From a virus (taxonomy: Duplodnaviria; Caudoviricetes): 64,000 nucleotides of DNA. The stretch lies in IMG/VR virus record IMGVR_UViG_3300025372_000010, positions 32,001 through 96,000 of that record; one strand, given 5' to 3'. Below are positions 2 to 30,476 of this stretch, in pieces; positions within the stretch are counted from its first letter, which is position 1; each line of letters begins with the position of its first letter. Both the position numbers and the translations under genes were made by a program. The notes under the pieces were generated by a model. The model saw only the letters and a program-made list of their open reading frames with translations. It ran no database searches and was not told the origin of the DNA.

Positions 2-115
2 AATGTACCTGATTATTTATTAGTAGAGTTGGAGGGTAATGTATTTAGAGACTTAATGGGTATGCTACAAGTTCCTCAAGATCCTACAAATGACAAACAA
101 AATCCTGATCGATAA
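2..115 (+). CDS. 3' end of upstream structural (probable tail ring) protein, partial
   Basis: Open frame NVPDYLLVELEGNVFRDLMGMLQVPQDPTNDKQNPDR*; its TAA overlaps the next ATG (TAATG). Confidence 0.6.
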   Translation, partial: NVPDYLLVELEGNVFRDLMGMLQVPQDPTNDKQNPDR

Positions 116-1002
116 TGAACACTCAGCTTAAATATAGAACATTTGATCAGTTATTAGCATCTGTTGGTACAGATCTATATATGTATAATAATGAGAACAT
201 GATTGAGCCTGCTCAACTTATTAAAGTTGCACAGCGTGTTAGTTATGATCTTGGCTTACGTATACATGGAACTAAAGAGAAAGTATTAGATGTAGAAAGA
301 AGAAAGGCTAAACTACCTGATGATTTCTATGTACTTAACTATGCTCTTTTATGTGGCCATTATAAAGTTGAAAGACCTGCTTTACAAGGAGATCAAAGAG
401 AGTCTTTATGTGTATCTGATATTTGTAGAAGATGTCATGGTAATGTACATGAGTGTGGTTGTGAAGATACATACACTATAGCTAAAACAGTTTATGGTGA
501 TGATTCAGGATCTTTAGTACTTGTACAAAAGGTAAAGACTGAAGTGAGAGTATATGATCACTTTGAGATGCTTCATATGTTAAAAGAAAGAGGGTCTAAG
601 AAGAATCATCATGATCAAAATCATGCTGAGATAAAAAATGGTTATATTTATACTAATATAGAAGAGGGTAAGATAATGATATCTTACGAAGGAGCTTTAG
701 AAGATGAGCAAGGTAACTTATTAGTTTTAGATCATCCAGAGATTAATGAGTATTATGAGTATGCTGTTAAACAGCGTATCTTAGAAAACTTATATCTTAA
801 TGGAGAAGATGTAGGACAAAAGATGTCTTTAATAGAACCTAGATTAAAAGCTGCTAGAAACTATGCCTTAACTATTGTAAATACTCCTAATTTTTCTGAG
901 ATGAAACAGTTGTGGGAGATGAACAGAAAAGCTCAGTATATGAAGTATTATAATATGTTTAAAGGTAACGAATTCATTGAGTGGATTAAACCTTTATACT
1001 AA
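115..1002 (+). CDS. Probable tail ring/adaptor protein (crAss-like)
   Basis: 295 aa; position just upstream of the muzzle gene; 'LPDDF' and 'DEQGNLLVLDHP..YYEY' segments resemble crAss ring proteins; internal Cys-rich loop. Confidence 0.6.
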   Translation: MNTQLKYRTFDQLLASVGTDLYMYNNENMIEPAQLIKVAQRVSYDLGLRIHGTKEKVLDVERRKAKLPDDFYVLNYALLCGHYKVERPALQGDQRESLCVSDICRRCHGNVHECGCEDTYTIAKTVYGDDSGSLVLVQKVKTEVRVYDHFEMLHMLKERGSKKNHHDQNHAEIKNGYIYTNIEEGKIMISYEGALEDEQGNLLVLDHPEINEYYEYAVKQRILENLYLNGEDVGQKMSLIEPRLKAARNYALTIVNTPNFSEMKQLWEMNRKAQYMKYYNMFKGNEFIEWIKPLY

Positions 1003-1008
1003 AATGAT

Positions 1009-1368
1009 ATGACACTTCGATCAACGCTTAAGATGCCAAACTATGGCTGTACATTATATATACTATGTACAGATGAGTTTCTAAAAGAGTGCAACAAAGT
1101 GTTTAAGAAGTTTAAAAGCCCAACAAGATGGGTATCTGAGGCAGAGGGTACATTAATAACAAACGATATAGATGAGTACTATTTGATCTTAAATCAGTCC
1201 TACTTAACCTATAACACAATAACGCATGAAACCTTTCATGCAACATTAAAGATTAGTAAAGATAGAGATATCCATGATGAAGAAGCTCAAGCTTGGTTAC
1301 ATGGATATGTGAATGAGGCGGTCTTTAAGTTTTTATCTAAAAAGAAGTTTACTGTAAAACATGGCTAA
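1009..1368 (+). CDS. Small protein with HExxH (zincin-like) motif
   Basis: 119 aa; 'ITHETFHA' followed by a downstream 'DEEAQAW' glutamate. Confidence 0.55.
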   Translation: MTLRSTLKMPNYGCTLYILCTDEFLKECNKVFKKFKSPTRWVSEAEGTLITNDIDEYYLILNQSYLTYNTITHETFHATLKISKDRDIHDEEAQAWLHGYVNEAVFKFLSKKKFTVKHG

Positions 1369-4300
1369 TACACAACAGAATCCTGGGGCAACTACTAACA
1401 CTTTTACCAAAGGTATGGTAAAGGACTACAGTGAAATGTATGTCGGGGAAGGCTTATGGACACATGCTAGAAATGCAGTGAATAACTCACACGAAGGTCA
1501 GCTAGGTGTAATAGGTAATGAGCCTGCTAACTTATTCTGTGTTACTCTTCCTTATAGCTTAATAGGTTGTATTCATCTATTAGATGATCAATGGGCTATC
1601 TTTACAACAGATGATGCTGATTCTGAAATAGGTATCTTTGATGAATCTGCTTGTTCTTACAAAAAAGTTATCAATGACCCAGCTTTAGGTTTTAATAGAT
1701 CTCATCTTATTACTGGTGTATTTAGAAAACGCTTTGACTGCGAAAGATTAGTTTACTGGGATGATGGTTTAAATCCATCTCGTTTTATGGATATAGATAA
1801 TCCTCCATTACAGTATACTGAGTCTATAGTTAATGGTTGTATTATTAAAACATATACTAAAAGATTAGATACAGAGCAAATTAGATTAGCTCCTTTAGTA
1901 CAGCAACCATGTCTCACTTTATCTAAAGGTACAGGCTCTGGTACATTAGCTAATGGATCTTACCAAGTATGTTTAGGCTATACGATTAATGAGAATCGTG
2001 TAACTGACTACATTGGTCTTTCAAATGTACAGTCTTTGTTTACTCATGAAAATCTTACTGGATCACTTGATCTAAAGATTACAAACATGGACAGTCATTT
2101 TGATGAGTTTGAGTTAGTAGTTATTTCAACAGTTAATAATCAATCTGTTGCTAAAAGATTAGGATATTATTATACAACACAAGGTACTATTCATATTGAT
2201 GCAATATTACCTGACTTGTTTACAGTTCCTATTAATCTTATTCCTTTAAGAACTGAGCCTATAGAAAAGACTGATGCAATGTACTCAGTTAATAATTATT
2301 TATTAAGAGTAGGTACATACAGCAAGTATCAGTTTAACTATCAGCAACAAGCTAATAAGATTATTACAAAGTGGGCAGCTGTACAATATCCAGAAACTTA
2401 TTATTATAAAGGTGGTCATAATGTAGGATACTTAAGAGATGAACAATATGCATTCTTTATCCGTTGGGTATATAATACAGGAGAGCGTTCATCTAGTTTT
2501 CATATTCCAGGTAGACAAGCAACTGCTGCAGAACTAGTTAATGTTTATGCAGGAGATGCTTTTGAAACTATAGAAAGTATTAATAATATTCCTCAAACTA
2601 GACAGCTTTGGCAAGTACAAAATACTGCTGGAGTTGATGATCTTAATAGTTATACATTATCAGATGGTGGTGTAGTATTGGCAAAAGGTCATATGGGCTA
2701 TTGGGAATCTACTGAGATTTATCCAGCAGATCGTCCTGATATATGGGGACCATTATGTGGTCAACCTATTCGTCATCATAAGATGCCGGATGTTACAATC
2801 CCTGGAGGAGAGTTACTTAACCAATATAACTCAGTAAACAATACAGTGGTTATATTAGGAGTGGAATTTGATAATATATCTGTGCCTGTAGATGAAAATG
2901 GTAATCCTATATCTTCTATAGTTGGTTATGAAATACTTCGTGGTTCAAGAGAAGGTGAGAAGTCTATTATAGCTAAGGGTATGTTTAACAACATGCGTCA
3001 GTATGATATTCCTAATAATCCTTTAGTAAAAGGCCTATATCAAAACTATCCTTATAATGATTTAAGACCAGACTATCTTCTTACATCTGATGCCAATATT
3101 GGTACAGTGGGACATGCTGATGTAAACTTAGGATCTCCTCTTACTTCTTATAAAAAGAACTACTTATCTTTTCATAGTCCTGAGACTAACTTTAGTAAAC
3201 CATATTTAAGTGGTGAAGAAGTAAAGATCTATCAAGAGTTATCTGGTACAGCACAAGGTATGTTTTCTCAGCCTTATAAGCATCCTAAGTTTAAGATGCT
3301 TAGCAACTTTAGTTCTCAATTGGCTAGTACAATAGGAACTATTTCTGTTATAGGTGATTTCTTAGGATCTATTGCTCAAGATTTTAACCTAACTTTAAAA
3401 GGTACAGAAGCTCTTCCTTTTGATAAAAAGTTAACACTTACTAAGATCCCTAACTTTCCTTTAACATTTGGAGGAGGAGCAAGCTTTTTGGGTATTGGTG
3501 GTAGTGTAACTGGATCTATTCCTAACCCTGTAATTGTAGCGGAAAATATTGCAATAGGAGCATACAACGTAGCTGTTGCTATTGCTATGAGTTATATTGA
3601 AGCTGAAAGTACTGGAGAGCAATTATTTAATATTATTCAAGCTTTAGTTCCTAGAATACAGTTTGGTTTACAATACGATTCACATGGATTTTATAATAAC
3701 GCAAGAACAAATGTGGCTGGTAATAGAAGGAAAAGAATCGAGAAATCAGCATACGTAGGTGGTAACTTACAAAGCTTTGATACTGACTATCATGTAAATA
3801 ATATCTATAGATCTAATTTTGTAGTTATTAAAACTGAAGAAGACATAGCTGACCCTACTGTAGTAGATAATAGTAGATTTAGAATCTCTGAAAAGGGAGG
3901 AAATATTAACACTGTAGTAAGCTCTACAATATCTGGATACTATGGAGCTATTAAAGTTAGCTTTCCTAGTCAGTATGGACAACTAGAATCTATTAGACAA
4001 GTGCCAACTGGTAGCTGTGTATTTCCTATAGGAACAGATGTTTTATATAAATCAGATGTGATTTTTGGTGGTGACACTTATGTTGGAAGATATACAGAGA
4101 AGAATGCATTTACCTTCTTTAACTCATGGCCTGTAGGTGAACCTGATGAATATGAGATAGACTACAGAAACTATACTAATATACCTTACCCAAGATTCTG
4201 GCTTAATTCTTCTAAGACAGTATTTAGCTTGTTTAAGAATGCTAGTCTTCAACGTCATTTAGATGATAGAGAAAGCTCTTTATTTTATGTAAGTAAAGGA

Positions 4301-5956
4301 CACATTTATTTATTCTTTAATGGAGTGAGAGACTTTTATGTAGAGTCTGAGATTAATTTAGCTCAGAGAGACTGGGAAGATGATCTATCTAAACGTCACT
4401 ATGATCCTAATGAGTATACTGACTATACATCTTTATTCCGATCAGATATTGTAAAGAGTGGTAATTTCTGTAAGTATGATTATTCATTAAGTGTATCTAA
4501 GTTATTTACTAACTTTGCAAGTTGGGGTACATTATATCCTAGAGATTATAATCCTGCTACAGCTGCTAGTTGTTATGTCTACAGACCTAATAGAGTGATA
4601 TATTCTTTACCACAAGAACAAGAGCTTAAGAAAGATAACTGGAGAATCTTCTTAACTAATAACTATAAAGACTTTATATCTCCTATCACTGCTGTAAAGA
4701 AAGTAAATAAAACTGGTGCCCTCTTTATGATGGAGTATCAAAGTCCATTCCAGTTTATTGGAGTTGAACAATTGCAGACAGATGCTGGTACAAAAATTAC
4801 TGTAGGAGATGGTGGATTATTTAATCAAGCTTTACAGAATATAGTTAACTCAGATGAATCATATGAATATGGTTCTTGTCAGAATAAATATGCAGTGGCT
4901 GCAACTACTCATGGTATTTTTTGGGTGAGTCAAAACCAAGGAAAGATCTTCCAATATTCTGGAGGATTAAATGAGATATCAAGAGATGGTATGAAGTGGT
5001 GGTTTGCAAAGTATCTTCCTTCTCAGCTTCTTAAACAGTTTTCTGATTATCCTTTATATGATAATCCTGTAAAAGGAGTTGGTGTACAAATGATATATGA
5101 TAACACTGATGAGGTAATATATATTACTAAAAAAGATTACAAGCCAATAGTAAGTGATCTACAGTTAGAGGGAGAGAAGTTTTACCGTGTAATAAATGGT
5201 CATAAGACTTATTTTGAATTAACTGATACTAGTGTATTTGAACCAGCTCATTGGACATTAAGTTATGATCCTAAGAATAAAGTGTGGTTATCATTCCATG
5301 ACTGGATTCCTTCATTCTTGATTCCAGGTAAAGCTCACTTTATGAGTGTAAATACTAATAGCATCTGGAAGCATAACGTTAGATGTGATCAGTACTGTAA
5401 CTTCTATGGTAAAGATTATCCATTTGAAGTGGAGTTTGTTTCTTCTACAGGACAAGCAGTTAACTCTATGAGAAACATAGAATACATGCTTGAAGTGTAT
5501 AAATACTATAATGACTGCCGTGATAAGTTCCATCTATTAGAGGAGAACTTTGATCAGGCTATGATATATAACTCAGAACAAGTGAGTGGATTATTAGAGC
5601 TTGTAATGAAAGCTAAGAATAACCCATTAGATGGATTAACCTATCCTAAGATTAATGCTAGTAGTATATCTATTAATTACTCTAAGATAGAACAGAAGTA
5701 TAGATTTAACCAGTTCTGGGATATTACTAAAGACCGTGGACAATATACTGGAAATGAACTACCAATGTTTGTTACAGCTGCTAATGGATATCAATATCAA
5801 GTTAATCCATCTTATATAGACTATAATAAACATATACTAGAGCGTAAGAAGTTTAGACACAACTTAAATAAAGTGTGGTTACGCAAAATGGTAAGTGGTA
5901 GTCATAAGTTCTTGTTTAAACTATCCAACGAAAAACTACAATCTTCTTATAGATAA
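1361..5956 (+). CDS. Tail muzzle/stabilisation protein (P22 gp10-like, crAss-type)
   Basis: 1531 aa beta-rich protein; N-terminal 'TFTKGMVKD..A.N', 'YWDDGLNP.R', 'RDEQYAF', 'IRHHKMP', 'GGDTY', 'WLSFHDWIP' motifs; position before the cargo genes. Confidence 0.8.
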   Translation: MANTQQNPGATTNTFTKGMVKDYSEMYVGEGLWTHARNAVNNSHEGQLGVIGNEPANLFCVTLPYSLIGCIHLLDDQWAIFTTDDADSEIGIFDESACSYKKVINDPALGFNRSHLITGVFRKRFDCERLVYWDDGLNPSRFMDIDNPPLQYTESIVNGCIIKTYTKRLDTEQIRLAPLVQQPCLTLSKGTGSGTLANGSYQVCLGYTINENRVTDYIGLSNVQSLFTHENLTGSLDLKITNMDSHFDEFELVVISTVNNQSVAKRLGYYYTTQGTIHIDAILPDLFTVPINLIPLRTEPIEKTDAMYSVNNYLLRVGTYSKYQFNYQQQANKIITKWAAVQYPETYYYKGGHNVGYLRDEQYAFFIRWVYNTGERSSSFHIPGRQATAAELVNVYAGDAFETIESINNIPQTRQLWQVQNTAGVDDLNSYTLSDGGVVLAKGHMGYWESTEIYPADRPDIWGPLCGQPIRHHKMPDVTIPGGELLNQYNSVNNTVVILGVEFDNISVPVDENGNPISSIVGYEILRGSREGEKSIIAKGMFNNMRQYDIPNNPLVKGLYQNYPYNDLRPDYLLTSDANIGTVGHADVNLGSPLTSYKKNYLSFHSPETNFSKPYLSGEEVKIYQELSGTAQGMFSQPYKHPKFKMLSNFSSQLASTIGTISVIGDFLGSIAQDFNLTLKGTEALPFDKKLTLTKIPNFPLTFGGGASFLGIGGSVTGSIPNPVIVAENIAIGAYNVAVAIAMSYIEAESTGEQLFNIIQALVPRIQFGLQYDSHGFYNNARTNVAGNRRKRIEKSAYVGGNLQSFDTDYHVNNIYRSNFVVIKTEEDIADPTVVDNSRFRISEKGGNINTVVSSTISGYYGAIKVSFPSQYGQLESIRQVPTGSCVFPIGTDVLYKSDVIFGGDTYVGRYTEKNAFTFFNSWPVGEPDEYEIDYRNYTNIPYPRFWLNSSKTVFSLFKNASLQRHLDDRESSLFYVSKGHIYLFFNGVRDFYVESEINLAQRDWEDDLSKRHYDPNEYTDYTSLFRSDIVKSGNFCKYDYSLSVSKLFTNFASWGTLYPRDYNPATAASCYVYRPNRVIYSLPQEQELKKDNWRIFLTNNYKDFISPITAVKKVNKTGALFMMEYQSPFQFIGVEQLQTDAGTKITVGDGGLFNQALQNIVNSDESYEYGSCQNKYAVAATTHGIFWVSQNQGKIFQYSGGLNEISRDGMKWWFAKYLPSQLLKQFSDYPLYDNPVKGVGVQMIYDNTDEVIYITKKDYKPIVSDLQLEGEKFYRVINGHKTYFELTDTSVFEPAHWTLSYDPKNKVWLSFHDWIPSFLIPGKAHFMSVNTNSIWKHNVRCDQYCNFYGKDYPFEVEFVSSTGQAVNSMRNIEYMLEVYKYYNDCRDKFHLLEENFDQAMIYNSEQVSGLLELVMKAKNNPLDGLTYPKINASSISINYSKIEQKYRFNQFWDITKDRGQYTGNELPMFVTAANGYQYQVNPSYIDYNKHILERKKFRHNLNKVWLRKMVSGSHKFLFKLSNEKLQSSYR

Positions 5957-5957
5957 A

Positions 5958-8900
5958 ATGAATAAGCTTTTACAATTATTAGTAGATACTGGTGATGTAT
6001 CACACAGAGCTCTTCCTGGGTTACAAAAAGCTCAGGTAGGTGGAACCTCTTTGTTTCAAGCTCCTGCTCCTATATATGATAATATTCCTAGCCTTGGTGC
6101 TGTTCGTAAGAATATTATGATGCAGCAACAAGCAGCACAACAAGCTGCTAACAGAGCTGCTCAGGAAAGACAAGGTAGCATTAGTAAAGCTGAAGCTCCT
6201 AGATCTGCTAGTTCTAAAGCTTGGGCTATGGCCACTCATCCTATGACTGCTGCTCAATATGTAATTGCGGGTAGAGGAATACCAGAGCATTTTGATAGAG
6301 GTCCTGAGAATAACTTAGATAATGCAATGGATGTAATAAATCCGTTCTTTTATGCTAATGAAGCAGGTCAAGCTATTTCTGGTGCGGGTAAATATGCTAT
6401 GGACCCATATCATAATAATCCTGCAATGTTAGGAGAAGCTGCTTTACATGGTATTACATCTGTACCATTATTTACAGAGTTTGCTCCTGAGCTAAAAGGA
6501 TTAACAAAAAACACTGGTAAAAACTTAAGACAGTTTTTAGGATATGCTACACAAGGTGTGCCTTTTGAAAGCACTATACCTAGACTTCCTGAAGGTGCTG
6601 TTAAAGATTTTAGACATATACAAGAGATAGCTAAGATGAAAGAGTCTGGAGCTAACTTGGCAGATAGAATGAAGTATGGTATAAAGAATGTGCCAGATAA
6701 TCACTTTGAGAGAATCTTTGAAATGCCTAAGTCTGAAGCACAAACTTATTTAGATAAAGGCTTTGGTCAAAACCCAGAACCTAAAAACTATTCTGTTTTA
6801 CCTAATAGATCTTTTGCTTCTGATCCTATAGATTTTGATCCTAGACAAGGAACTATTGATGATGTTAGACAACTTATCCTTCAAGGTTATATTACACATC
6901 ATCCTGAAACAGGCAATATGCTTTTAGCAAATGATGTACATCATCTTACTAATAGTCAATTAGATAATGCACTTAATGATTTATCTGCGGCTCATGATCG
7001 TCATTATGATCAAATCATGAGAGGTCACCAAATGCCTGCTGAAAGTCCAAGAGAAGTATATAGTTTAGAAGGATCTGATGCTGACATTGATCGTGATTTT
7101 ATGGATTATACTACAATGCCTTCTGATAACTTTGTAAGTAATGCAAGAAACACAGGTAGATTTAACTTTAATTTAGATAAGAATCCTAGAGCTGGAATGA
7201 ATATGAAGCAACAAGCTATGTATGAGCTTGGAGATGCTGCAAAGACAGGAGTTTCTAGATTAAAAGATATGTTGATTGATGCTTCTCAAAACTATCCATA
7301 CTACTCTGGTAATAATGTAGCTCATAAAGTACCTAGTCTTTTTAAAGCAGATAATACTTTAAAAGGATTAGCTAATACTGTTACTTCACAAGTAAACGAA
7401 GGATTAAAGTCAGGTGATGTATTTACTGGAAGTGAAAATACTTCTCATAATTCTTGGTTACCTCAGGTAAAACAAGTGTTTAATTATAAAGAAGGAGCTC
7501 CTCAGTTTTTAGGATATAAACCTATGAATCAATTAGGGTATCTTAATAAGATGGGAGTAGAAAATGAAGATATAGCTAAATACTTAAATAGTGAAATAGA
7601 TCTTTTACAAGGACGTAATAAGATACCTAATGATATACAAAGACCATTTATGAAAGGAGATCGTGTAATGCTTCCTCAATATGGTGTTAAACAGTTTCAA
7701 GTAGGTGGACCTATAGTAGATCCATTAGGTCAATGGGCTCATCCTGGTCAAATCACTCGTATACCTAGTAATCAAATAACTATGCAAGGAGTTCCTTATC
7801 CTGTATTAGGTGTAGGATCTAATGGACAGCATCAAATGATGTATCCAGGTGGTGAGTATTCTTTTGGAGGAGCTCAACATGTAGATGAATATCCTATGAT
7901 GGCAGGTGGTGGTATCACTCATGCAGGTCATCATTTTCCAGGATACAATCGTCCTATAGCAGACAGCGATGGTGTACATAAAAAAGTAGTGTTAGCTAAA
8001 GTGGGTAATAAAACAAAGGTTGTTCACTTTGGTGCTAAAGGATATAGTAATAATTATTCTGCTAAAGCAAGAGTTGCTTATAAAAGCCGTCATGCTGGTG
8101 AAGGTAGTCAATCTAAACTAACTGCAGGTTATTGGGCTTATCATAATTTATGGAGCTCACACTCTCCTGCTAATCATGCTGGTAAGCATAGTGGTCATGG
8201 AGAGAGATTTGCTCAAGATGGTGGTGAAATGAATATGTATCAAGATGGAGGTGGTTATAACGATAACCAAATATATAACTCAGTTCCTAAAAGAGTTACA
8301 TTCTTACGTCACGGTATAACAGATGAAGATCTTAGAGGAGAGAATAGTGGACAGAATGATATTCCTATTAATAATAAGGGAGTGTATGAAACACTAAAAA
8401 CAGCTCATCAGTTAGCTGATAGACCTGTTGATTATTTAGTTAACTCTCCTGTACCAAGAGCTGCTCAAACTACAGCTATATTAGCTGATGAATTAAGTTT
8501 ACCACATGTAGTAAATCCGTATCTTGCAGCATGGAATCTAGGTAAGTTTTCAGGTAGACCAGAAAAGGAGTTTAACGAAAAGTATTTTGTAAAAAACCCT
8601 GACGTTCCTGTTCCTGGTGGCGAAAGTTTTAATAACTTTAAAGAGAGAGTGTTAACTGGTTTAGATCAATTAGATGGTATGCCAGGCAATCCAGCTGTTG
8701 TCACTCATAGTAAGACCTTACAACTATTAGAAGCTTTACAAGCTAACAAGGGTGTATGGAACAAGAAAGCTGAACAGAAATATCTTTCAACAAAGACTAA
8801 AGAAGATAAACAACTTTACGAGTTTGATACTAACTTAGCAAAGATTGGTGGTAACTTAGAATATGGTGGTTTATTTAAAGCTGCATTTGGAGGACCAACT

Positions 8901-9005
8901 CCAGCTAAAGCTAGAGAAATACTACATGATAAAACCGTTAATGGTCATCCTATAACAGATAAACAAAGAAGATTCTTTGGTTGGATATCTTCCCAAAAAA
9001 AGTAA
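5958..9005 (+). CDS. Modular virion cargo protein with xxxGG motifs and a histidine-phosphatase domain
   Basis: Likely start ATG 5958, right after the muzzle stop; RHG...S..RA.QT...GGES...VTHS phosphatase signature; Cys-free. Confidence 0.7.
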   Translation: MNKLLQLLVDTGDVSHRALPGLQKAQVGGTSLFQAPAPIYDNIPSLGAVRKNIMMQQQAAQQAANRAAQERQGSISKAEAPRSASSKAWAMATHPMTAAQYVIAGRGIPEHFDRGPENNLDNAMDVINPFFYANEAGQAISGAGKYAMDPYHNNPAMLGEAALHGITSVPLFTEFAPELKGLTKNTGKNLRQFLGYATQGVPFESTIPRLPEGAVKDFRHIQEIAKMKESGANLADRMKYGIKNVPDNHFERIFEMPKSEAQTYLDKGFGQNPEPKNYSVLPNRSFASDPIDFDPRQGTIDDVRQLILQGYITHHPETGNMLLANDVHHLTNSQLDNALNDLSAAHDRHYDQIMRGHQMPAESPREVYSLEGSDADIDRDFMDYTTMPSDNFVSNARNTGRFNFNLDKNPRAGMNMKQQAMYELGDAAKTGVSRLKDMLIDASQNYPYYSGNNVAHKVPSLFKADNTLKGLANTVTSQVNEGLKSGDVFTGSENTSHNSWLPQVKQVFNYKEGAPQFLGYKPMNQLGYLNKMGVENEDIAKYLNSEIDLLQGRNKIPNDIQRPFMKGDRVMLPQYGVKQFQVGGPIVDPLGQWAHPGQITRIPSNQITMQGVPYPVLGVGSNGQHQMMYPGGEYSFGGAQHVDEYPMMAGGGITHAGHHFPGYNRPIADSDGVHKKVVLAKVGNKTKVVHFGAKGYSNNYSAKARVAYKSRHAGEGSQSKLTAGYWAYHNLWSSHSPANHAGKHSGHGERFAQDGGEMNMYQDGGGYNDNQIYNSVPKRVTFLRHGITDEDLRGENSGQNDIPINNKGVYETLKTAHQLADRPVDYLVNSPVPRAAQTTAILADELSLPHVVNPYLAAWNLGKFSGRPEKEFNEKYFVKNPDVPVPGGESFNNFKERVLTGLDQLDGMPGNPAVVTHSKTLQLLEALQANKGVWNKKAEQKYLSTKTKEDKQLYEFDTNLAKIGGNLEYGGLFKAAFGGPTPAKAREILHDKTVNGHPITDKQRRFFGWISSQKK

Positions 9006-9021
9006 TAACTATAAAAATACT

Positions 9022-10596
9022 ATGAAAGCTCAACAATCCGCTCAGAACCAAAAGATCATGCAATTGATCCAAGCCTATGCCCAAAAGACTGGTGTAGATC
9101 CTCAACAAATTATGCAACAGTTGCAGCAGATGCAACCTCAGCAAGCTCAACAAGCTATACAGCAAATGGCTCAAACCTTACAAGGACATGCTCAGCAAGC
9201 TCCTCAACAAGGTGGTATGCAAATGCCTGATATGAATCAGATGGCTAATGGAGGTATTAACAATCCAGGCTTTAAAGCTTTACCAGAGTTTGTACAACAT
9301 AGTATCATCTCTCATATGGCATATGGTGGAATGTATCCACAAATGGCTGAGGGTGGAAAACCTGAGTGGTTAATATCAGCTCAGCTTAAAGCTCAAGGTT
9401 ATTCTGGCGATGCCTTAGCTCAAAAGTTAGACTCTATGGCTCATGGTGGTGAAATGATTCGTAGAGCTGATGGTCATTATTCCAAGAGAGGTCTTTGGGA
9501 TAATATCCGTGCTGCTGCAGGTAGTGGTAAAAAACCTACTCCTGAAATGTTAAAGCAGGAAAAAAAGATCAAATCTGAAATGGCTTATGGCGGTCCTGTA
9601 TTTCCTAGTGGATATAGTAATAGTCCTGAGATAAGTAAAGCAAAAAGTAAAGCTATTAATAAAAAGCAAGATGGTGGCCCAGCAATGGGAGGAGCTCCAA
9701 TGGGAGATAATGATGGTGATGAAGGTCAACAATCAGCTCAACAACAAGGTTCAGCACCTATGATGCAACAACCACATCAAGAAATGATGGCAGGTCATCC
9801 AGGTGGAGGAGCTATGCATCCTATGGCATTAATGATGGCAATGAGTCAACATGCTGGTTCTGTACAGCATCACAAGAAACATCATAAGAAACATAAAGAT
9901 GGTGGATCTACATATGCTGATGGTGTATGGTACCAAGATGGTGGTGCAGCTTATTTACCAGACTATACAGAGTATGCATTAGGAGGAAGATATTTCTTAC
10001 CTAATGGACTTGGATCTTATAGAGATGGTGGTAACTTAAATAGAGGAGCTAGCTTAAACTTTATGCCTAGTGAAGCACCAGACTTATTTAGTCATGTACC
10101 TATTGAATCATTTAAGAGCTCAGGTCAAAAACCTCAGTCACAAATGTCTTTTGGTGGAGGTGTAGGTTATCCTGTAGCAGGAGCTGAGTTTGTAAGTGGT
10201 TACCCAGCAGGTTCAAGAACTCCAGATATAGCTGGTCACATGGCATACGGTGGTGGTGTAGGAGTTTATCCAGAAGGATATAACTTAGTTACTGGTGTAC
10301 CTAATCGTACTCCTGACGCTGCAGGTCATATGGCTTATGGTGGAATTCATATCAAGAAGTCTCATGAAGGTAAGTTTACTGAATGGGCTAAGCGTAATGG
10401 ATATTCTATGAGTCAAGCTATTTCAGCTGGTAAGAACTCTTCTAATCCTGCTGTTAGAAAAATGGCTACCTTTGCAGCTAATGCTCGTAAATGGAAACAC
10501 CAAGATGGTGGGATAGCAGTTGGTCAAGAAATGAATGTTACTCCAGAACAACTAGAGATGTTGAAGAAACAAGGTTATAAATTTGACGTTATATAA
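9022..10596 (+). CDS. Low-complexity cargo protein with MAxGG/xQDGG repeats
   Basis: Likely start 9022; Gln-rich N-terminus; about 14 xxxGG motifs; C-terminal 'IHIKK..GKFT..A...ATFAANARKWKH' module. Confidence 0.7.
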   Translation: MKAQQSAQNQKIMQLIQAYAQKTGVDPQQIMQQLQQMQPQQAQQAIQQMAQTLQGHAQQAPQQGGMQMPDMNQMANGGINNPGFKALPEFVQHSIISHMAYGGMYPQMAEGGKPEWLISAQLKAQGYSGDALAQKLDSMAHGGEMIRRADGHYSKRGLWDNIRAAAGSGKKPTPEMLKQEKKIKSEMAYGGPVFPSGYSNSPEISKAKSKAINKKQDGGPAMGGAPMGDNDGDEGQQSAQQQGSAPMMQQPHQEMMAGHPGGGAMHPMALMMAMSQHAGSVQHHKKHHKKHKDGGSTYADGVWYQDGGAAYLPDYTEYALGGRYFLPNGLGSYRDGGNLNRGASLNFMPSEAPDLFSHVPIESFKSSGQKPQSQMSFGGGVGYPVAGAEFVSGYPAGSRTPDIAGHMAYGGGVGVYPEGYNLVTGVPNRTPDAAGHMAYGGIHIKKSHEGKFTEWAKRNGYSMSQAISAGKNSSNPAVRKMATFAANARKWKHQDGGIAVGQEMNVTPEQLEMLKKQGYKFDVI

Positions 10597-10604
10597 ATAT
10601 ACTT

Positions 10605-13600
10605 ATGAAGATACGTATTACTAAACTACCTAAGCTACCTAAAGCACAAGTTGGAATGGCTTCCACTCCTATATACAGTGTTAATGGTAGACAGTTAGAT
10701 CCTAACAATCCAGCTGATGCTCAGGAGATTGCAAATGCTAAAGCTGCATCTGATGCGGCTAATGCTCATTTTGCACAACCTAGCTCTATTGATATGTCTC
10801 AGTTTAAAGCTCCTATGGTTGGTCCTGTTTATCAAGATCCAGAACCAGAGAGTCCATCTGATCCTTATGGAAATATAGCTCGTCCTAAAGCTCAAGGTCA
10901 GTTAGTAAACCCTAGTACAAATCCAGGATTACTTAACCAAGTTAATCAGATGTCTGATAATGTAGGTTATGAAATGGATCAAAGATATCAGACAGATCCT
11001 AAGTTTAAAAGAAGACTTGATAGAAGCACAAGACCTGCTAATATAAACACATCTAATAATGTTTCTAATGCTATTAGTAACTTACAAAACTTTGGACAAG
11101 ATCTTCAAAAAGGTATAGGTGTGACATCTGCTTTAACAGATATGTTTGTTACTAATCCTCAAAGACAAAGAGATAATCAAGCACGTGTAAGAAGTGCTAT
11201 GCAGACAGATAACTTATTTCCTTTAGTTCCAGGTAATATGTCTGGTAACAAAGGAGACTATGTAGCTGCAGGAAGTAGATATGGTGACTTTAGACCTGAT
11301 GAGAAAGTAGCTAATAAAGGTATGTATAGTAGCTCATTTTATCCTGAGATGAGAGCTTTTCAATTAGGTGGTGGGTTAGATTATATGATGCCTAGTACAG
11401 TGTTACCTTCTTATACACCATCTTCTACAGCATTGCCTGTAAGATCTGCTGCACCTAGTAATACTCCTAGTACTAGATCATATTCTAATAATACTAGTAA
11501 TGCACATAGTAGCAATAACTCAGGTTCTTTTCCTTCTCACTATGATCATAACAATCCAGGTAATATTCATATTGGTGGTTTTGCTAAACAATATGGAGCT
11601 ACACAAGGTAGACCAGATGGAGATGGTTATGTAGCAGTATTTCCAGATATGCAAACTGGAATAAAAGCTATGAAAGATTTGTTATTTGGATCAGCTTATA
11701 GTAACTTGCCAATAAGTGCTGCTAGAACTAAATGGGTTGGATATGATAATCCAAGCTCAAGAGCTATTGCTAATGCTGTAGGAAGTGATAAAAAGCTATC
11801 TGACTTAAGCCCAGAAGAAAGAGAAAAAGTATTTAATGAGTTTATTAGATGGGAAGATGCTAATGTATACAATCAAATGAAAAAACAAGGTCTTGCTTAT
11901 CAACAAGGCGGACAAACTAATAATATGAAAATACGTATAACAGGTGCACCTGAGGCTGCTTATGGTGGTCAGTTTGGTTTTGGTATTGATCTAGGTCAAC
12001 GTGGTACATATGATACTATTACTAAGAACTCTTATGAGCATGTATCAGATACTATACCAGAAGCTAAAAATGGTGGTGCTACTATTGAAGCTGAGAAAGG
12101 AGAAACTGTAGTTTATAATAAAGATGGTGTATTAGTACATCAGAAGATTGGCGGTAAGCGTCACTTTGCTGGTGGTACTCCATTAGCAGTTCCTCAAGGA
12201 AGCTTTATTTTCTCTGATACAAAGAAGATGAAGATTAAAAACCCTGCTATCTTAGCTCACTTTAATAAAACTTATAAAGCAGGTGGAATTACTCCAGCTG
12301 ATGTTGCTAAGCAATATGATATAAATAAGTACCAAGCTATTATAGATGATCCTCAAGCAGATGATTTATCTAAGAATACAGCTAAGCTTATGTTATCTAA
12401 CTACAAAAAGAAGCTAGGTGGTTTAGCTTTAGTACAAGAGTCTATGAAAGGATTCCCACAAGGAGTTCCTGAATTAGCTAAGTCAACTTTTGGTCCACAA
12501 AAGCCTACAGAAGATAATGACACTCAAGCTAAATATGGTGGTTATTTTGCTGATGGTGGAGAAAGTGGAGATCCTGTAACTGATGAAATGAAGAAAGCTG
12601 CTAAGAGAGCTCAGACTAAAAAAGACTTAGAAGGCTATACTAAAGTAGCTGATGCTGATGGTAGAGTTTACTATCAAAAGAAAACTAAAGTTAAAGATGC
12701 TCAGCATGTTCCAGGATCAGATACACCAGGTCATTATGAAAAAGGATACAATGTGGATTTAACTGTTCGTGATAATGGCGTATCTCCTGATGACATTATG
12801 AACAATCCTGATAAGTATAAAACTTTCCATAAGTTATTAGAAGGAGCTCCTGAGGATATTAAGCGTAAAGCTGCTGAAGATTTATACTATCATGGTCATA
12901 TGCCAGGTAAGTATGTACCAGGTGAAAAAACTCCAGATCAAGATATTCCAGAAGAATGGAAGACTGATTACTTATATGAAGAACCAGAGCAACCAACTAC
13001 TCCAGGTGGTGGTGGCGGGGATAATAATACTAGGACTATTCCTACTAAGTTTAATCAAGGACGTAAACCTTTCTTTGGACATAACTTATTTGTAGCTCCT
13101 CAAAGAGATGTAAACTATGCAGCTCCAATGAATGCTATGATGCCTGAGCCTACATTCTATGACCCTAGTAGAGAATTAGCTAGTAACGAAGAGCAGTCTA
13201 ATGCTATGTTAGCTTATATGTCTGGATTAGGTAGTCCTCAGTCATATGCTGCTAATGCATCTGCTGTACAAGGAAATGCTCTTAGAAATGCAGCTGATAT
13301 TAATGGTAGATATAATAACTTAAATGTAGGGGTAGCTAATCAATTTAGTCCTTTACAAACTAATATAATGAACCAGTTAATGCAATATCAAGCTAACAGA
13401 GCTGATACATTAGCTTGGAATCAAAACCAAATGAACAAGTCTTATAATAATAGTCTTAGAAACTATTTAGGATCTGTAGATAAATACAGAGCTAATGATT
13501 ACGACTACTACACTAAGAGAAATATTACTAATGCTGTTAATCCATACTTTAACTATGTAGATGGACCAGGTGGAGGTAATATTCAGTTTAAGCCAGGTGT

Positions 13601-13904
13601 AGATCAATACAGTATGATTACTGGTAGATTTAATATGCCAGGTATGCAACAACAGCAAGGTCTTAGCGGTGATCAATACTTAGCTACTATGCAAAATCTT
13701 AGATCTAAGTATAAAGACTTATCCCCAGGTCAGTTAAATAAAGCTATTGGATTAATGTATCCAGGTATGGGAGGTTCTGCTAACAATAGAGCAATGATGG
13801 CTCAGTATATGTCTCAAGCAATGAATAATCCTTATAACGCATCTAATCCAATATATCGTGGAGGTTATGATATTAATTCACCTTTTGATACTGGAGAAGA
13901 GTAA
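10605..13904 (+). CDS. Cargo/ejection protein with NNPGNI (putative lysozyme-like) module
   Basis: 1099 aa; 'HNNPGNI...AVFPDMQTGIKAM' module; 'IEAEKGETV...GKRHFAGGTP...FIFSD' module; xxxGG motifs. Confidence 0.65.
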   Translation: MKIRITKLPKLPKAQVGMASTPIYSVNGRQLDPNNPADAQEIANAKAASDAANAHFAQPSSIDMSQFKAPMVGPVYQDPEPESPSDPYGNIARPKAQGQLVNPSTNPGLLNQVNQMSDNVGYEMDQRYQTDPKFKRRLDRSTRPANINTSNNVSNAISNLQNFGQDLQKGIGVTSALTDMFVTNPQRQRDNQARVRSAMQTDNLFPLVPGNMSGNKGDYVAAGSRYGDFRPDEKVANKGMYSSSFYPEMRAFQLGGGLDYMMPSTVLPSYTPSSTALPVRSAAPSNTPSTRSYSNNTSNAHSSNNSGSFPSHYDHNNPGNIHIGGFAKQYGATQGRPDGDGYVAVFPDMQTGIKAMKDLLFGSAYSNLPISAARTKWVGYDNPSSRAIANAVGSDKKLSDLSPEEREKVFNEFIRWEDANVYNQMKKQGLAYQQGGQTNNMKIRITGAPEAAYGGQFGFGIDLGQRGTYDTITKNSYEHVSDTIPEAKNGGATIEAEKGETVVYNKDGVLVHQKIGGKRHFAGGTPLAVPQGSFIFSDTKKMKIKNPAILAHFNKTYKAGGITPADVAKQYDINKYQAIIDDPQADDLSKNTAKLMLSNYKKKLGGLALVQESMKGFPQGVPELAKSTFGPQKPTEDNDTQAKYGGYFADGGESGDPVTDEMKKAAKRAQTKKDLEGYTKVADADGRVYYQKKTKVKDAQHVPGSDTPGHYEKGYNVDLTVRDNGVSPDDIMNNPDKYKTFHKLLEGAPEDIKRKAAEDLYYHGHMPGKYVPGEKTPDQDIPEEWKTDYLYEEPEQPTTPGGGGGDNNTRTIPTKFNQGRKPFFGHNLFVAPQRDVNYAAPMNAMMPEPTFYDPSRELASNEEQSNAMLAYMSGLGSPQSYAANASAVQGNALRNAADINGRYNNLNVGVANQFSPLQTNIMNQLMQYQANRADTLAWNQNQMNKSYNNSLRNYLGSVDKYRANDYDYYTKRNITNAVNPYFNYVDGPGGGNIQFKPGVDQYSMITGRFNMPGMQQQQGLSGDQYLATMQNLRSKYKDLSPGQLNKAIGLMYPGMGGSANNRAMMAQYMSQAMNNPYNASNPIYRGGYDINSPFDTGEE

Positions 13905-13962
13905 ACCTAGTAAGTTTAGCTTTAAACTTTAAATATTTTTCGTTATATTATTAATGTACCCT

Positions 13963-16900
13963 ATGGCACAATACATCCCATACATACAAGATCAAGCTCC
14001 TGAACCAGTGTTATACCAACCTGATTGGGGGATGATTGGAACTGCCTTACAAAAGAAGGATTATCAGTACCAACAAGGAATTAATCAACTTCGTCAGGGG
14101 TATGGTTCGATTCTTAATGCACCTCTATCTAACTCAGAGAATATTCCTGTAAGAGATCAGTATGTAAAACAAGCTCAAGAAAGTCTTAAGAAGATTTCTG
14201 GAGCTGATCTTTCTTTACCAGAAAATGTACAAGCAGCTCAAAATATCTTCGAGCCTTTCTGGAATGACCCCTTTATTGTAAAAGATGCTAACTACACTCA
14301 ATGGTATCAGTCTCAACAACAAAAGCTTGCTAGTTGGAGAGATTCTCAAGATCCAAAGGTTAGATCTATGTACAGTCCTGTAATGGAACAATACCTTAAT
14401 CAAGGTTTAAATAAGCTACAAACTGCTAAGAGAACTCCTGAAGGCTTTTCTCGTATAGAAAGAAGAGAAGCCATTCCTTTTACTAATGTACAAGAATGGT
14501 TACAAGATAGAGCTAAAGATCAAGGTTTAAAGATTGATTGGACAGATGTATCTCCAGATGGTGCTTACCTTATAGATACTACCAATGGTCAAAAGACTCA
14601 GAAGAAGTTTTCTTCTTGGGCTGAGGGTATGATGGGTGATAACTTTAACGAGCAGTTTAAGATTGAAGGTAGAGTGAGAGCTGAGAATGTAGAAAACTAT
14701 ATTAAATCTCAACCTGCTAATGCTGGATTACCTCCTGAACAAATCAGAGCTAAAGTTGCTGATTATGTTATAACTAATCTTAAAAACGGATATGAGCAAA
14801 GAGTAGGAAAGATTGATAGTCAAATCTCTAGTATAGATAACTTATTAAAATCTTACCCTGCAAATATTAGTGATCCTGCACAAGCTCAAAAAGCTCAGCA
14901 GTTATTAGATGAAAGAAGACAGTTAGCTAGTTTAAAAGATAGTGTAAGTTCTGAATACGGTGGTATAGAAGATCCCAATAGTCCTTTGTATAAACAAACT
15001 ATACAAAGTGTTTTACAAGATCCTACTAATTATTTTGGTACCTTATCTAAACAATCTACTATTAATAACTGGGCTACAGCAAGAGCTGAAGTAGAAAGCA
15101 GAACTATTAAAGAAAACTCTTCTTTCTTTAAAGCTCAAGATATAAAAGAAAAGTATGATAATCTTAACTTCCAAAAACAAAAGGAAGCAGATCTTAAAGA
15201 TTATAGAGATAAATTATTAAGTATTAAAGGTGCTGGTGGATTAAGAGGAGCTGGTGGAACTGGAGCTGGGGGTGGAGGTAAAATGAGTTTTACTTTAGAC
15301 AACGATGGTAATGTAGTTCCAGTGTTTGGTCCTGCTACAGAGGGAGAACAACTTTCTACAGGAGCTAGAGTTAAAGGTTTAGGCTCAACAGATATTACTA
15401 CAACTCCTAGTGCATATGATGTATTTATGAACTATCAAGGAGCTTTATTAGGTACTGCTCATGATAAGACATTTAATCCAGAAAGTGGAGCTATTCGTTT
15501 TTTAACTAATGCAGGATTATCTGATGATGATGTAATGCAAATCAGTTCTGGTCTTAAGAGACAACTTACTGATGGAGAAAACTTCTCATGGAATCCTAAA
15601 GAAGTAACTGCTTTAGATAAGTTAGCTAAATCTCAAGGGTTTAGTAAATATTGGAAAGATAGTAAAGTGAGTAATATCCAACAAGGTATTCTTAACTATG
15701 CTAAAGACTATGTGAAGCAAAAGCATGATAATAATATTGACTTTACAGATGATGATACAAAAGTGTTACAAAACTATTTAGAAGCTAAACAAGCTAATGA
15801 TATGTTTGTAGCTAATGAAGATGACAGACAAAATCTTATTAAGAATAGTATCTTAACTGATCCTAAAACTTATGGAAAGATTACTGTTGATAGAGATGGT
15901 AAAAAAGATCTTATACAGCAATCTGATGTACAAAAGTTCTTTAAAGATAATGGTATTAAAGTTATAGATAAGTGGTCTGTATCTAGCGATCCTGAAGAAA
16001 AGGTAAGCTTAAAAGATTTGTCTAGAGCTTTTATGCAAGGTAAAGTTAAGTTTTCTACAGCAAAGCTTGCTGATATGGTTGAGCAAAGAGCTACTATTGA
16101 TGGTACCACTTATGCTATATTAGGTAATGTAGAAGGAATCAAATCTAGATTCGGAAGCTCTGAGGATTTTTCTAATCTATATATGAAAGCTAATACAACT
16201 GTAGTTCCTCATCTTAAGTACTTTGAGAACAAAACAGCTCGTATGGGTACTGTATGGGGATTAAACTTAGATGATTATAATAAAGATCCTCAAGGATTCC
16301 AAATAGTAGAGGAGGCATTATTACCATCTAATCAGCTTAATATATATGCTCAAGATAAAAATGGTAATCAAACTGTAGTAGATAACGATACTCGTAACGC
16401 TATAAAAATGTTATTAGGTAGTCGTGAGAATATTAAGAAGTATTTAGGTAATGCTGACTACTACACACAAGGAGTTAATGGTAACCCAACTCTTTCTTTT
16501 AATATAAAAGAGTTGTCTTCATCTGATAAGAATAATATTGGTGGAGTAGATCTTAACAAGTTAAACACAGATGTGTATAAGATTGAAATAAGTCCTGAAG
16601 CTAAAGGTCCAAATTTACGTAACTTACCACAGAATAGCGGTAACTATGTTTATCAAAAGCTTTTGCAGGGTGAGTCTATGCACAGTGATGATATGTTAAA
16701 CTCTTATGGAATTAGTTATGATATAGTTCCAAATAATAATACAAATCCTACAGGAGGATCTGTTACATTTAAGTACAACTTAAGAACTAATAAACTAAAC
16801 CCTACTACAGGACAAATGGAAATAGCTACTGTTCCTATGCAAGAGCGTAAAGTATTCTCATTTGAAGATGTAACTCCTGATCAAGTGGTAGGAATGATCC

Positions 16901-17028
16901 ATAGTAATATAGTTCAGTTGATGATGGTTAATCAACAAGCTAGTAAGCAGTATGAACAACATCAAAAAAGTAGTAATGCTCCTAGCTTTAATCTTCAAGC
17001 AGAGCTTAATAAACTAGGTATAAAATAA
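13963..17028 (+). CDS. Large cargo/ejection protein
   Basis: About 1021 aa (alternative start 13954); Cys-free; helical N-half; located between cargo genes and the vRNAP block. Confidence 0.65.
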   Translation: MAQYIPYIQDQAPEPVLYQPDWGMIGTALQKKDYQYQQGINQLRQGYGSILNAPLSNSENIPVRDQYVKQAQESLKKISGADLSLPENVQAAQNIFEPFWNDPFIVKDANYTQWYQSQQQKLASWRDSQDPKVRSMYSPVMEQYLNQGLNKLQTAKRTPEGFSRIERREAIPFTNVQEWLQDRAKDQGLKIDWTDVSPDGAYLIDTTNGQKTQKKFSSWAEGMMGDNFNEQFKIEGRVRAENVENYIKSQPANAGLPPEQIRAKVADYVITNLKNGYEQRVGKIDSQISSIDNLLKSYPANISDPAQAQKAQQLLDERRQLASLKDSVSSEYGGIEDPNSPLYKQTIQSVLQDPTNYFGTLSKQSTINNWATARAEVESRTIKENSSFFKAQDIKEKYDNLNFQKQKEADLKDYRDKLLSIKGAGGLRGAGGTGAGGGGKMSFTLDNDGNVVPVFGPATEGEQLSTGARVKGLGSTDITTTPSAYDVFMNYQGALLGTAHDKTFNPESGAIRFLTNAGLSDDDVMQISSGLKRQLTDGENFSWNPKEVTALDKLAKSQGFSKYWKDSKVSNIQQGILNYAKDYVKQKHDNNIDFTDDDTKVLQNYLEAKQANDMFVANEDDRQNLIKNSILTDPKTYGKITVDRDGKKDLIQQSDVQKFFKDNGIKVIDKWSVSSDPEEKVSLKDLSRAFMQGKVKFSTAKLADMVEQRATIDGTTYAILGNVEGIKSRFGSSEDFSNLYMKANTTVVPHLKYFENKTARMGTVWGLNLDDYNKDPQGFQIVEEALLPSNQLNIYAQDKNGNQTVVDNDTRNAIKMLLGSRENIKKYLGNADYYTQGVNGNPTLSFNIKELSSSDKNNIGGVDLNKLNTDVYKIEISPEAKGPNLRNLPQNSGNYVYQKLLQGESMHSDDMLNSYGISYDIVPNNNTNPTGGSVTFKYNLRTNKLNPTTGQMEIATVPMQERKVFSFEDVTPDQVVGMIHSNIVQLMMVNQQASKQYEQHQKSSNAPSFNLQAELNKLGIK

Positions 17029-22593: not shown

Positions 22594-22596
22594 CAT

Positions 22597-30474: not shown

Positions 30475-30476
30475 TT

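Follow-up and report, generated by a model that had tools for sequence, protein, structure and literature searches.

A recurrent Gly-Gly motif at module boundaries in the C1-type cargo proteins of crass-like phages

Three consecutive cargo genes of a crAss-like phage, named A, B and C here, are punctuated by a short motif that ends in Gly-Gly and falls at boundaries between modules of the encoded proteins. The genes lie in a stretch of 64,000 nucleotides, the window, which covers positions 32,001 to 96,000 of IMG/VR record IMGVR_UViG_3300025372_000010; the source genome is 112,862 bp long. All coordinates refer to the window and all features described are on its + strand. Protein A (5958..9005) has 1015 amino acids (aa) and 8 copies of the motif, protein B (9022..10596) has 524 aa and 14 copies and is a string of modules of 25-60 aa, and protein C (10605..13904) has 1099 aa and 8 copies and combines two genes that some relatives carry separately. 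The copies, called seams here, are enriched, conserved among related phages and placed at the edges of modules that are shuffled between phages, and a tail peptide and a head peptide co-occur where the cargo chain is divided between genes. The best explanation, to which we give an even chance, is that the seam is an uncut joint linking the autonomous modules of a single long, thread-like ejection protein. Literature searches found no published description of the motif or of cargo processing in crass-like phages, and the seam motif is apparently new to the literature.

The main pattern used, [FYMWHKAL][AQKRS].GG, was derived from this window and was therefore tested on independent data, namely relatives and database homologues. 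It matches 8 + 14 + 8 = 30 times in A, B and C (2,638 aa) and 13 times in the rest of the proteome (108 open reading frames, ORFs; 32,105 aa), which gives a Fisher p of 3e-24 per residue and 6e-13 per GG. A reading made from the sequence alone had counted about 30 such motifs. Every pentapeptide that it listed is present in the gene named, including the four copies of MAYGG in B, and the enrichment over the Gly-rich background is borne out by composition-preserving shuffles, whole-protein or local over 40 residues, which yield 3.4-3.5 +/- 1.8 matches and at most 12 in 5,000. A stricter pattern, [FYMW][AQK].GG, matches 16 times in A, B and C and once elsewhere. The GG dipeptide itself is in excess in the three proteins (53 against 28.6 +/- 4.7 expected). 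The information content resides on the three positions preceding GG (M/Y/F/A, then A/Q/K, then D/Y or any residue), with almost none after it except a faint hydrophobic preference 2-3 residues past GG. At position -3 from the first Gly (P5) 62% of the residues are M, Y or F, and P4 is A, Q, E or K. The motifs fade downstream of C, as had also been noticed from the sequence: the next cargo gene, D, has none and the three giant genes that follow have 0, 0 and 3, which is the chance level. The muzzle protein upstream has one match, equal to the chance expectation.

The motif recurs well beyond this genome. Related IMG/VR contigs, 47 in number, were retrieved by means of the muzzle protein. In them the motif is carried by the ORFs downstream of the muzzle gene and almost never by those upstream. 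Database homologues of B, 119 in number, contain 899 matches against 103 +/- 11 in shuffled sequences; 105 of them have at least 4, and they reproduce the same residue preferences. Individual seams are kept across orthologues at 20-45% identity in an alignment of B with 15 orthologues. Protein gp45 of crAss001, the cargo protein C1, carries the motif together with its relatives in DAC15, cr106_1, cr112_1, cr126_1 and bajarodcaudo virus 1. In the other crAss001 virion proteins the motif is not found beyond chance, and gp46 has none. The motif is confirmed as general to the C1-type cargo proteins of crass-like phages.

The same alignment of 16 sequences supports the earlier suggestion that the motifs fall at boundaries between modules. 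Whole modules of 25-45 aa are gained or lost as indels with edges at GG. Small units of B are present, absent or relocated among phages, each beginning after a GG and ending in x-x-GG; examples are TNNPGFxALPxxVQxxIxxxMAxGG, KPEWLIxAQLKAQGY...MxxGG, EMIRRADGxYSKRGLWDNIRA... and IHIxxxxKGKFT...NARKW. Further inserts in the database homologues of B include YkuD, DUF3597, DUF5754 and PF25725, and a lysozyme in bajarodcaudo virus 1 is likewise bracketed by seams. The AlphaFold models of B and C place the motifs at helix ends, at domain edges or in disordered linkers, with a few (YKAGG, KKLGG) inside a folded domain. In B four seams (100, 141, 188 and 494) lie 1-2 residues past a predicted helix end and the others in low-confidence linkers; residues 190-442, which hold many of the seams, are modelled with low confidence. 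In C the seams flank two confident domains, 313-430 and 475-630, and two seams fall inside a domain. Several unrelated effector or binding domains are combined in these predicted packaged polypeptides, among them His_Phos_1, a DUF5754-like domain, a lysin-like domain and several small modules.

Gene breaks also fall at seams, and here the chain has a further feature. The upstream gene ends in a tail of about 26 aa with the consensus ..[DE]-V-T-x-E-x-L-x-x-L-x-x-x-G-Y-x-F-E-I-I, and the downstream gene begins with a head, MKI(K/R)I. The tail ends 74 of the 119 database homologues of B. At the cargo gene boundaries of relatives a gene with the tail is followed by a gene with the head in 21 strict cases, plus about 8 missed by the regular expression, out of 31 heads, and no tail occurs without a head. 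Two phages provide a natural experiment. The gp45 homologue of cr106_1 is encoded by a single gene, and that of its relative cr112_1 (locus 2775-5824) is interrupted by a homing endonuclease gene, with the break exactly at the seam that precedes the portal-bound domain. The cr112_1 N-fragment ends in ...KHSYGG followed by the 26-aa tail (YLEGAEYDLDEKEIGRLIKEGYEIEYI); the C-fragment begins with MKIKILRIPSQIDSS, repeats the pre-seam residues (NARGWNHAFGG) and continues with WLNTHGG. The last 85 residues of B (aa 440-524) align over their whole length with the C-terminus of this N-fragment, tail included, at 47% identity (BLASTP, E 1e-21). Since the end of B matches in this way and C starts with MKIRITKLPKLPKAQVG, the boundary between B and C is the same seam. 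The pieces in the window are the C-terminal tail of B (IAVGQEMNVTPEQLEMLKKQGYKFDVI, 10513..10593), a candidate docking piece, and the N-terminal head of C (MKIRITKLPKLPKAQVG, 10605..10655), its candidate partner. Protein C, the fusion of two such genes, retains an internal MKIRIT...AAYGG, with a head copy (MKIRITGAPEAAYGG, 11925..11966) at the old gene junction in a region predicted to be disordered. To judge from these sequences, tail and head look like two docking partners that hold the parts of a split protein to each other and so let a mobile endonuclease divide the gene without killing it. Docking of this kind would imply selection for continuity of the chain and would therefore argue against cutting at every seam.

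The assignment of A, B and C to the C1 position follows from the order of the locus, which matches gp43-gp50 of crAss001. The gene of tail ring protein R1 (115..1002; Pfam PF24228 CrAss_Ring_1, E 5.7e-15) marks the locus as a crAss tail and cargo block. It is followed by an ORF of 119 aa (1009..1368) with the motif HETFH, a possible small metallopeptidase (Pfam SprT-like, E 0.0018, below the cut-off), and by the muzzle gene (1361..5956), homologous to crAss001 gp44 by PHROG virion structural matches and by gene order. Then come A, B, C, D (13954..17028, in the C2/gp46 position) and the three giants (17047-34262). The crAss001 counterparts run gp43 (R1), gp44 (muzzle), gp45 (C1), gp46 (C2) and gp47-gp50 (the RNA polymerase block). 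Residues 427-491 of B match gp45 directly (tblastn against phage records of 2.3 Gb, E 9e-6), and a module of B, IHIKKSHEGKFTEW...ARKWKHQDGG (10339..10512), is common to gp45 (aa ~375-428) and its relatives by tblastn and BLASTP. Some database homologues of B carry PF25725. A six-frame search of the whole genome with PF25725 (crAss_CARG1, the hidden Markov model of the gp45 family) gave no candidate even at E <= 10, and the only Pfam match in A, B and C at E <= 0.01 is His_Phos_1. BLASTP comparisons of C with gp45 and of D with gp46 were non-significant, a profile of B orthologues found no match among PDB sequences, and tblastn of B aa 126-230 found none in the phage records. A, B and C are most likely packed in the phage particle and injected.

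In the preferred reading, A, B and C would be the counterpart of crAss001 gp45, enlarged and spread over three genes. The thread would be built of modules of 25-150 aa, which comprise small mini-domains of helical or basic character along with a histidine phosphatase, a lysin-like and a beta-rich domain. Every module would end in a peptide made of a large hydrophobic residue, a helix-favouring residue (A/Q/K/E), any residue and Gly-Gly. This peptide may halt the preceding structure and add a flexible hinge, so that modules could fold, unfold and be stored separately while the chain stays intact. A hinge would suit a protein that is partly extended in capsid and tail and threaded through portal and tail. 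Seams would tolerate breaks, and evolution could therefore insert, delete and relocate modules there. At seams that coincide with a gene break, the matching C-terminal tail and MKI(K/R)I head would keep the pieces joined. We infer both this role as hinge or insulator and that most seams remain uncut.

The crAss001 virion provides evidence on one seam. In its structure gp45 residues 425-552 were modelled as one domain on the portal and residues 214-245 were found bound to rings R1 and R2; parts of gp45 were placed in both tail and capsid, a continuous chain was argued, and the protein, Gly-rich and partly disordered, is presumed to be kept in extended form between tail and capsid and to be the first to leave (PMC10172136). 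The seam motif goes unmentioned there. Length and mass (842 aa, 90.80 kDa) confirmed the gp45 numbering, in which residue 425 is the A of NAFGG-W. Since the modelled range starts at A425, the bond after this GG is intact and the seam is uncut in crAss001. The first bound part, 214-245, lies between AYGG (207-210) and FAEGG (261-265), and the second, 425-552, between NAFGG and FAYGG (559-563); the motifs themselves are mostly unresolved in the structure.

Several points weigh against an uncut hinge. First, a plain hinge needs neither a conserved M/Y/F at -3 nor A/Q/K at -2. Second, tandem seams 6-9 residues apart occur with no module enclosed between them. Third, the evidence for an uncut seam concerns a single seam in one distant relative and comes from a published residue range rather than from coordinates. 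Fourth, the 12 residues upstream of 396 seams have a mean helix propensity equal to background, and helix capping therefore explains a subset of seams at most. A general helix C-cap, which the four B seams fit, was rejected on this average and kept as a partial explanation. Fifth, the tail and head could serve co-packaging alone, with cutting later, and the AlphaFold model of C shows no folded structure for the fused tail-head remnant, a region predicted to be disordered. Finally, full-length gp45 was not demonstrated among virion proteins. Peak lists of matrix-assisted laser desorption/ionization (MALDI) spectra of crAss001 virion gel bands 1-10 (Shkoporov 2018, PMC6235969) were analysed by peptide-mass fingerprinting, an insensitive method by which the portal was barely detected, and gp45 and gp46 gave only chance-level matches in these bands (58 to > 300 kDa). 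No model accounts fully for the conserved hydrophobic and helix-favouring residues that precede GG.

The same peak lists identify other virion proteins. Muzzle gp44 occurs together with ring protein gp34 in bands 1-2 (> 300 kDa), consistent with a tail complex that is disulfide-linked or resistant to sodium dodecyl sulfate. Band 3 is gp47 and gp50, band 4 gp49 and gp44, band 5 the portal, and bands 6-9 are gp26/gp22, gp22/gp25, gp25 and gp23.

The sequence-only reading offered maturation cleavage or a packaging signal as the function of the motif. Its description of the motif as non-random, confined to cargo and placed at boundaries stands, and neither mechanism received direct support. Cleavage survives best, although we consider it improbable. 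In this alternative the three proteins would be cut at the seams into many small products, in the capsid or after injection, by a host protease or by a packaged zincin-like metallopeptidase, either in the 2625-aa cargo protein (22597-30474) or in the 119-aa ORF. The scheme would be akin to the processing put forward for phage 'polyvalent proteins' and to that of adenovirus core proteins. The precedents are the adenovirus protease, adenain, with the site (M/L/I)XGG-X, and the African swine fever virus (ASFV) protease pS273R, with the site GG-X. Information content restricted to the N-terminal side of GG is as expected of proteases that read the non-prime side, but at the seam the hydrophobic residue is off by one with respect to adenain, the hydrophobic P1' residue that zincins usually favour is not seen right after GG, and Pro follows GG frequently, at several conserved seams (for example GLPGG-PNE in relatives). 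Tandem seams have a parallel in adenovirus precursors, which contain tandem cleavage sites. Short basic N-terminal leaders ending in GG in relatives, such as MGHKKSIGLPGG and MSKVNLNKKSVKQQGG, speak for cutting, and in cr112_1 the pre-GG residues are duplicated across the split, so that the mature ends left by cutting would equal those obtained from the unsplit gene; the docking-like tail and head at gene breaks suggest instead that the link matters. The failure to see gp45 at full size in the published gel bands is weak evidence for cutting, and the NAFGG-W seam within one modelled crAss001 chain is evidence against it. Other virion proteins do not avoid the motif (5 matches against 8.0 expected and 3 against 2.9 expected, a comparison of low power).

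A protease was sought and none of a known family was found. Pfam and PHROG searches of 98 of the 111 ORFs, among the families listed, and separate scans of the cargo block returned no clan-CE, C39 or prohead protease (S78, U9/S77, S49, S80); no prohead protease was found among the 26 structural-module ORFs or elsewhere, and NCBIfam scans likewise revealed no known protease family. The sole peptidase-like features are two HExxH motifs, HETFH in 1009-1368 and HEALH in 22597-30474, both below the Pfam cut-off. HEALH (29911..29925) lies near the C-terminus of the 2625-aa protein, at aa 2439, where Pfam gives SprT-like at E 0.22 only, and marks it as a candidate packaged metallopeptidase. Protein gp47 of crAss001 has HEAFH (aa 2157) at the same relative position. 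This conserved HExxH fits the zincin-like domain noted for the block in the literature, where cleavage of fused crAss cargo polyproteins was proposed (10.1101/2020.03.07.982082), and autoprocessing by zincin-like metallopeptidase (MPTase) domains was proposed for polyvalent proteins (PMC5512222). The 119-aa ORF has the signature HNTIAHExxHA...EDR...DEEAQAWL, a minimal zincin-like motif, and is kept at the same place in 12 close relatives. Both crAss001 and the more distant relatives lack it but retain the seam motif, and it is therefore unlikely to be the cognate protease. In a stronger form of the proposal, which we regard as doubtful, the seams would be recognition sites of a zincin packed by all crass-like phages, which would cut C1-type cargo into dozens of peptides and enzymes after assembly or after injection, and tail and head would only co-load split precursors.

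Less probable still is a role of the motif as a multivalent handle for docking or loading, which would bind a repeated site in the procapsid (capsid protein, portal or scaffold) or other cargo and so load the attached modules. A motif that is restricted to cargo, present in many copies and marked by a conserved aromatic or Met 'sticker' beside Gly would be suitable for this purpose, as would the tandem copies with no module between them and the location of most copies in disordered segments, like short linear motifs. No crassvirus scaffold or loading signal is known, and the words scaffold and protease are absent from PMC10172136. The ordered, bound parts of gp45, however, lie between the motifs and not on them, and packaging in crAss001 extends to proteins without the motif, namely those of the C2/gp46 position and of the RNA polymerase block. 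These observations tell against a loading signal, although weak multivalent contacts may occur. The conserved C-terminal tail is a better candidate for a protein-protein handle.

It is very unlikely that the motif has no function of its own and merely accompanies low-complexity linkers rich in Gly, Met and Gln, or marks recombination at the DNA level: A, B and C are Gly-rich (9-14%), B is largely predicted to be disordered and the first motif Gly codon shows a weak bias to GGT (23 of 30 against 60% background), but local-composition shuffles give 3.4 matches for the 30 observed, single seams persist in divergent orthologues, the residue preferences recur in 119 independent homologues, and the motif glycine codons vary synonymously at background usage, which places selection on the protein and not on the DNA. 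A pure composition effect and a DNA-level signal such as a recombination hot spot or Chi-like word were ruled out on the shuffles and on the codons, respectively.

The modules joined by the seams in A and C include recognizable domains. A histidine phosphatase occupies A aa 781-924 (8298..8729; Pfam His_Phos_1, E 4e-24, and NCBIfam), between MYQDGG and LAKIGG. A basic mini-domain at A aa ~650-744 (7905..8189), flanked by MMAGGG and FAQDGG, has a weak DUF5754 match and matches phrog_7595/220/9979. Unrelated phages have it in portal proteins, in small proteins and in proteins annotated as prohead protease, there without GG flanks. It was therefore ruled out as the carrier of the motif, which goes with the crass cargo setting rather than with this domain. 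The mini-domain, of about 80 aa with the consensus KKVVLAK.G.K.KVVHFG...NYS..A...Y..RH, is found inside an oversized portal of Aphanizomenon phage CL131, in a small protein of Vibrio phage GR7B annotated Peptidase_S78_2, and in small proteins of Aeromonas phages and roseophages, one of them upstream of the major capsid gene. The module may serve generally in the capsid interior or in DNA binding. In the more distant relatives the first cargo protein begins with a short basic leader and a strongly conserved GLPGG-PNE, and then has a domain of about 60 aa (..DP.GQW.HPG..TRI.S..ITM..V..PV.G). Here this domain occupies A aa 584-650, preceded by KQFQVGG and some 550 additional residues.

B begins with a Gln-rich three-helix unit (aa 1-55, 9022-9190; ..IMQLIQAYAQKTGVDPQQIMQQLQQM..) with a predicted local distance difference test score (pLDDT) of ~95, which is found elsewhere along the chain in relatives and is another mobile module. 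In C an alpha/beta domain at aa 313-430 (11541..11894; AlphaFold pLDDT > 90) ends at YQQGG and resembles the catalytic domain of the Enc34 endolysin. Its best Foldseek match is 7q47_B (E 4.7e-3, probability 1.00, template modelling score 0.52 on the target), and no Pfam family matched it. The fold suggests that it is likely a cell-wall hydrolase module within an ejected protein. A beta-rich domain with EAEKGE...GSFIFSD follows at aa 475-630 (12027..12494; pLDDT 78-92), for which neither a PF25725 match nor a Foldseek match to 7QOG-type chains, the portal-binding fold, was obtained.

The closest known system is crAss001 C1, gp45 (PDB 7QOG, 7QOI, 7QOJ, 7QOL and 8CKB; Bayfield et al. 2023, PMC10172136). 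The two share the position directly after the muzzle gene, the module IHIKK..GKFT...NARKW and seam motifs at the edges of the two resolved parts of gp45. Here, however, there are three genes and 2,638 aa instead of 842, 30 motifs instead of 6, more modules, extra enzyme modules (histidine phosphatase and lysin-like), a tail and head pair at the boundary of B and C, and no match to PF25725. Polyvalent proteins with MPTase domains (Iyer et al. 2017, PMC5512222) are also strings of effectors that are packaged and delivered with DNA and undergo rapid domain shuffling, and a zincin-like HExxH domain, the proposed processor, lies in the same gene block, represented here by sub-threshold SprT-like matches only. 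No processing site has been defined for them; here the modules are mostly tiny, the zincin is in another polypeptide and the evidence leans towards uncut joints.

The sites of adenain and ASFV pS273R are similar in having a hydrophobic residue before Gly-Gly, many copies in proteins of the virion interior and tandem sites. They differ in that the hydrophobic residue is at P4 rather than P5, the viruses belong to different realms, no clan-CE gene was found here and one seam is intact in a related virion. Free-standing homing endonucleases are known to split genes, as in 'fractured genes' with split inteins and in polymerase genes of T4-like phages. The cr112_1 locus is alike in that an endonuclease gene lies between the cargo halves and each half has an added terminal piece, but these pieces, of ~26 and 15 aa, are far too small for an intein, have no catalytic residues and resemble a non-covalent docking pair.

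Crass-like phages are the most abundant human gut viruses and are also common in aquatic settings. Several megadaltons of protein are loaded and ejected by them, and to our knowledge the literature describes neither a scaffold nor a protease nor a loading signal for this process. A seam at the module boundaries of the first-ejected cargo protein offers a handle on the question of loading and ejection. If the zincin proposal were true, a processing code would for the first time be defined for phage 'polyvalent' cargo proteins, and the presence of gp45 parts in tail and capsid would be explained without a chain threaded through the portal. The seams predict where the chain bends or is cut and mark the plug-in sites of natural modules such as phosphatase, lysin and L,D-transpeptidase. 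They also suggest where foreign modules could be inserted for study, and the tail and head pair suggests a simple way of holding split phage proteins together.

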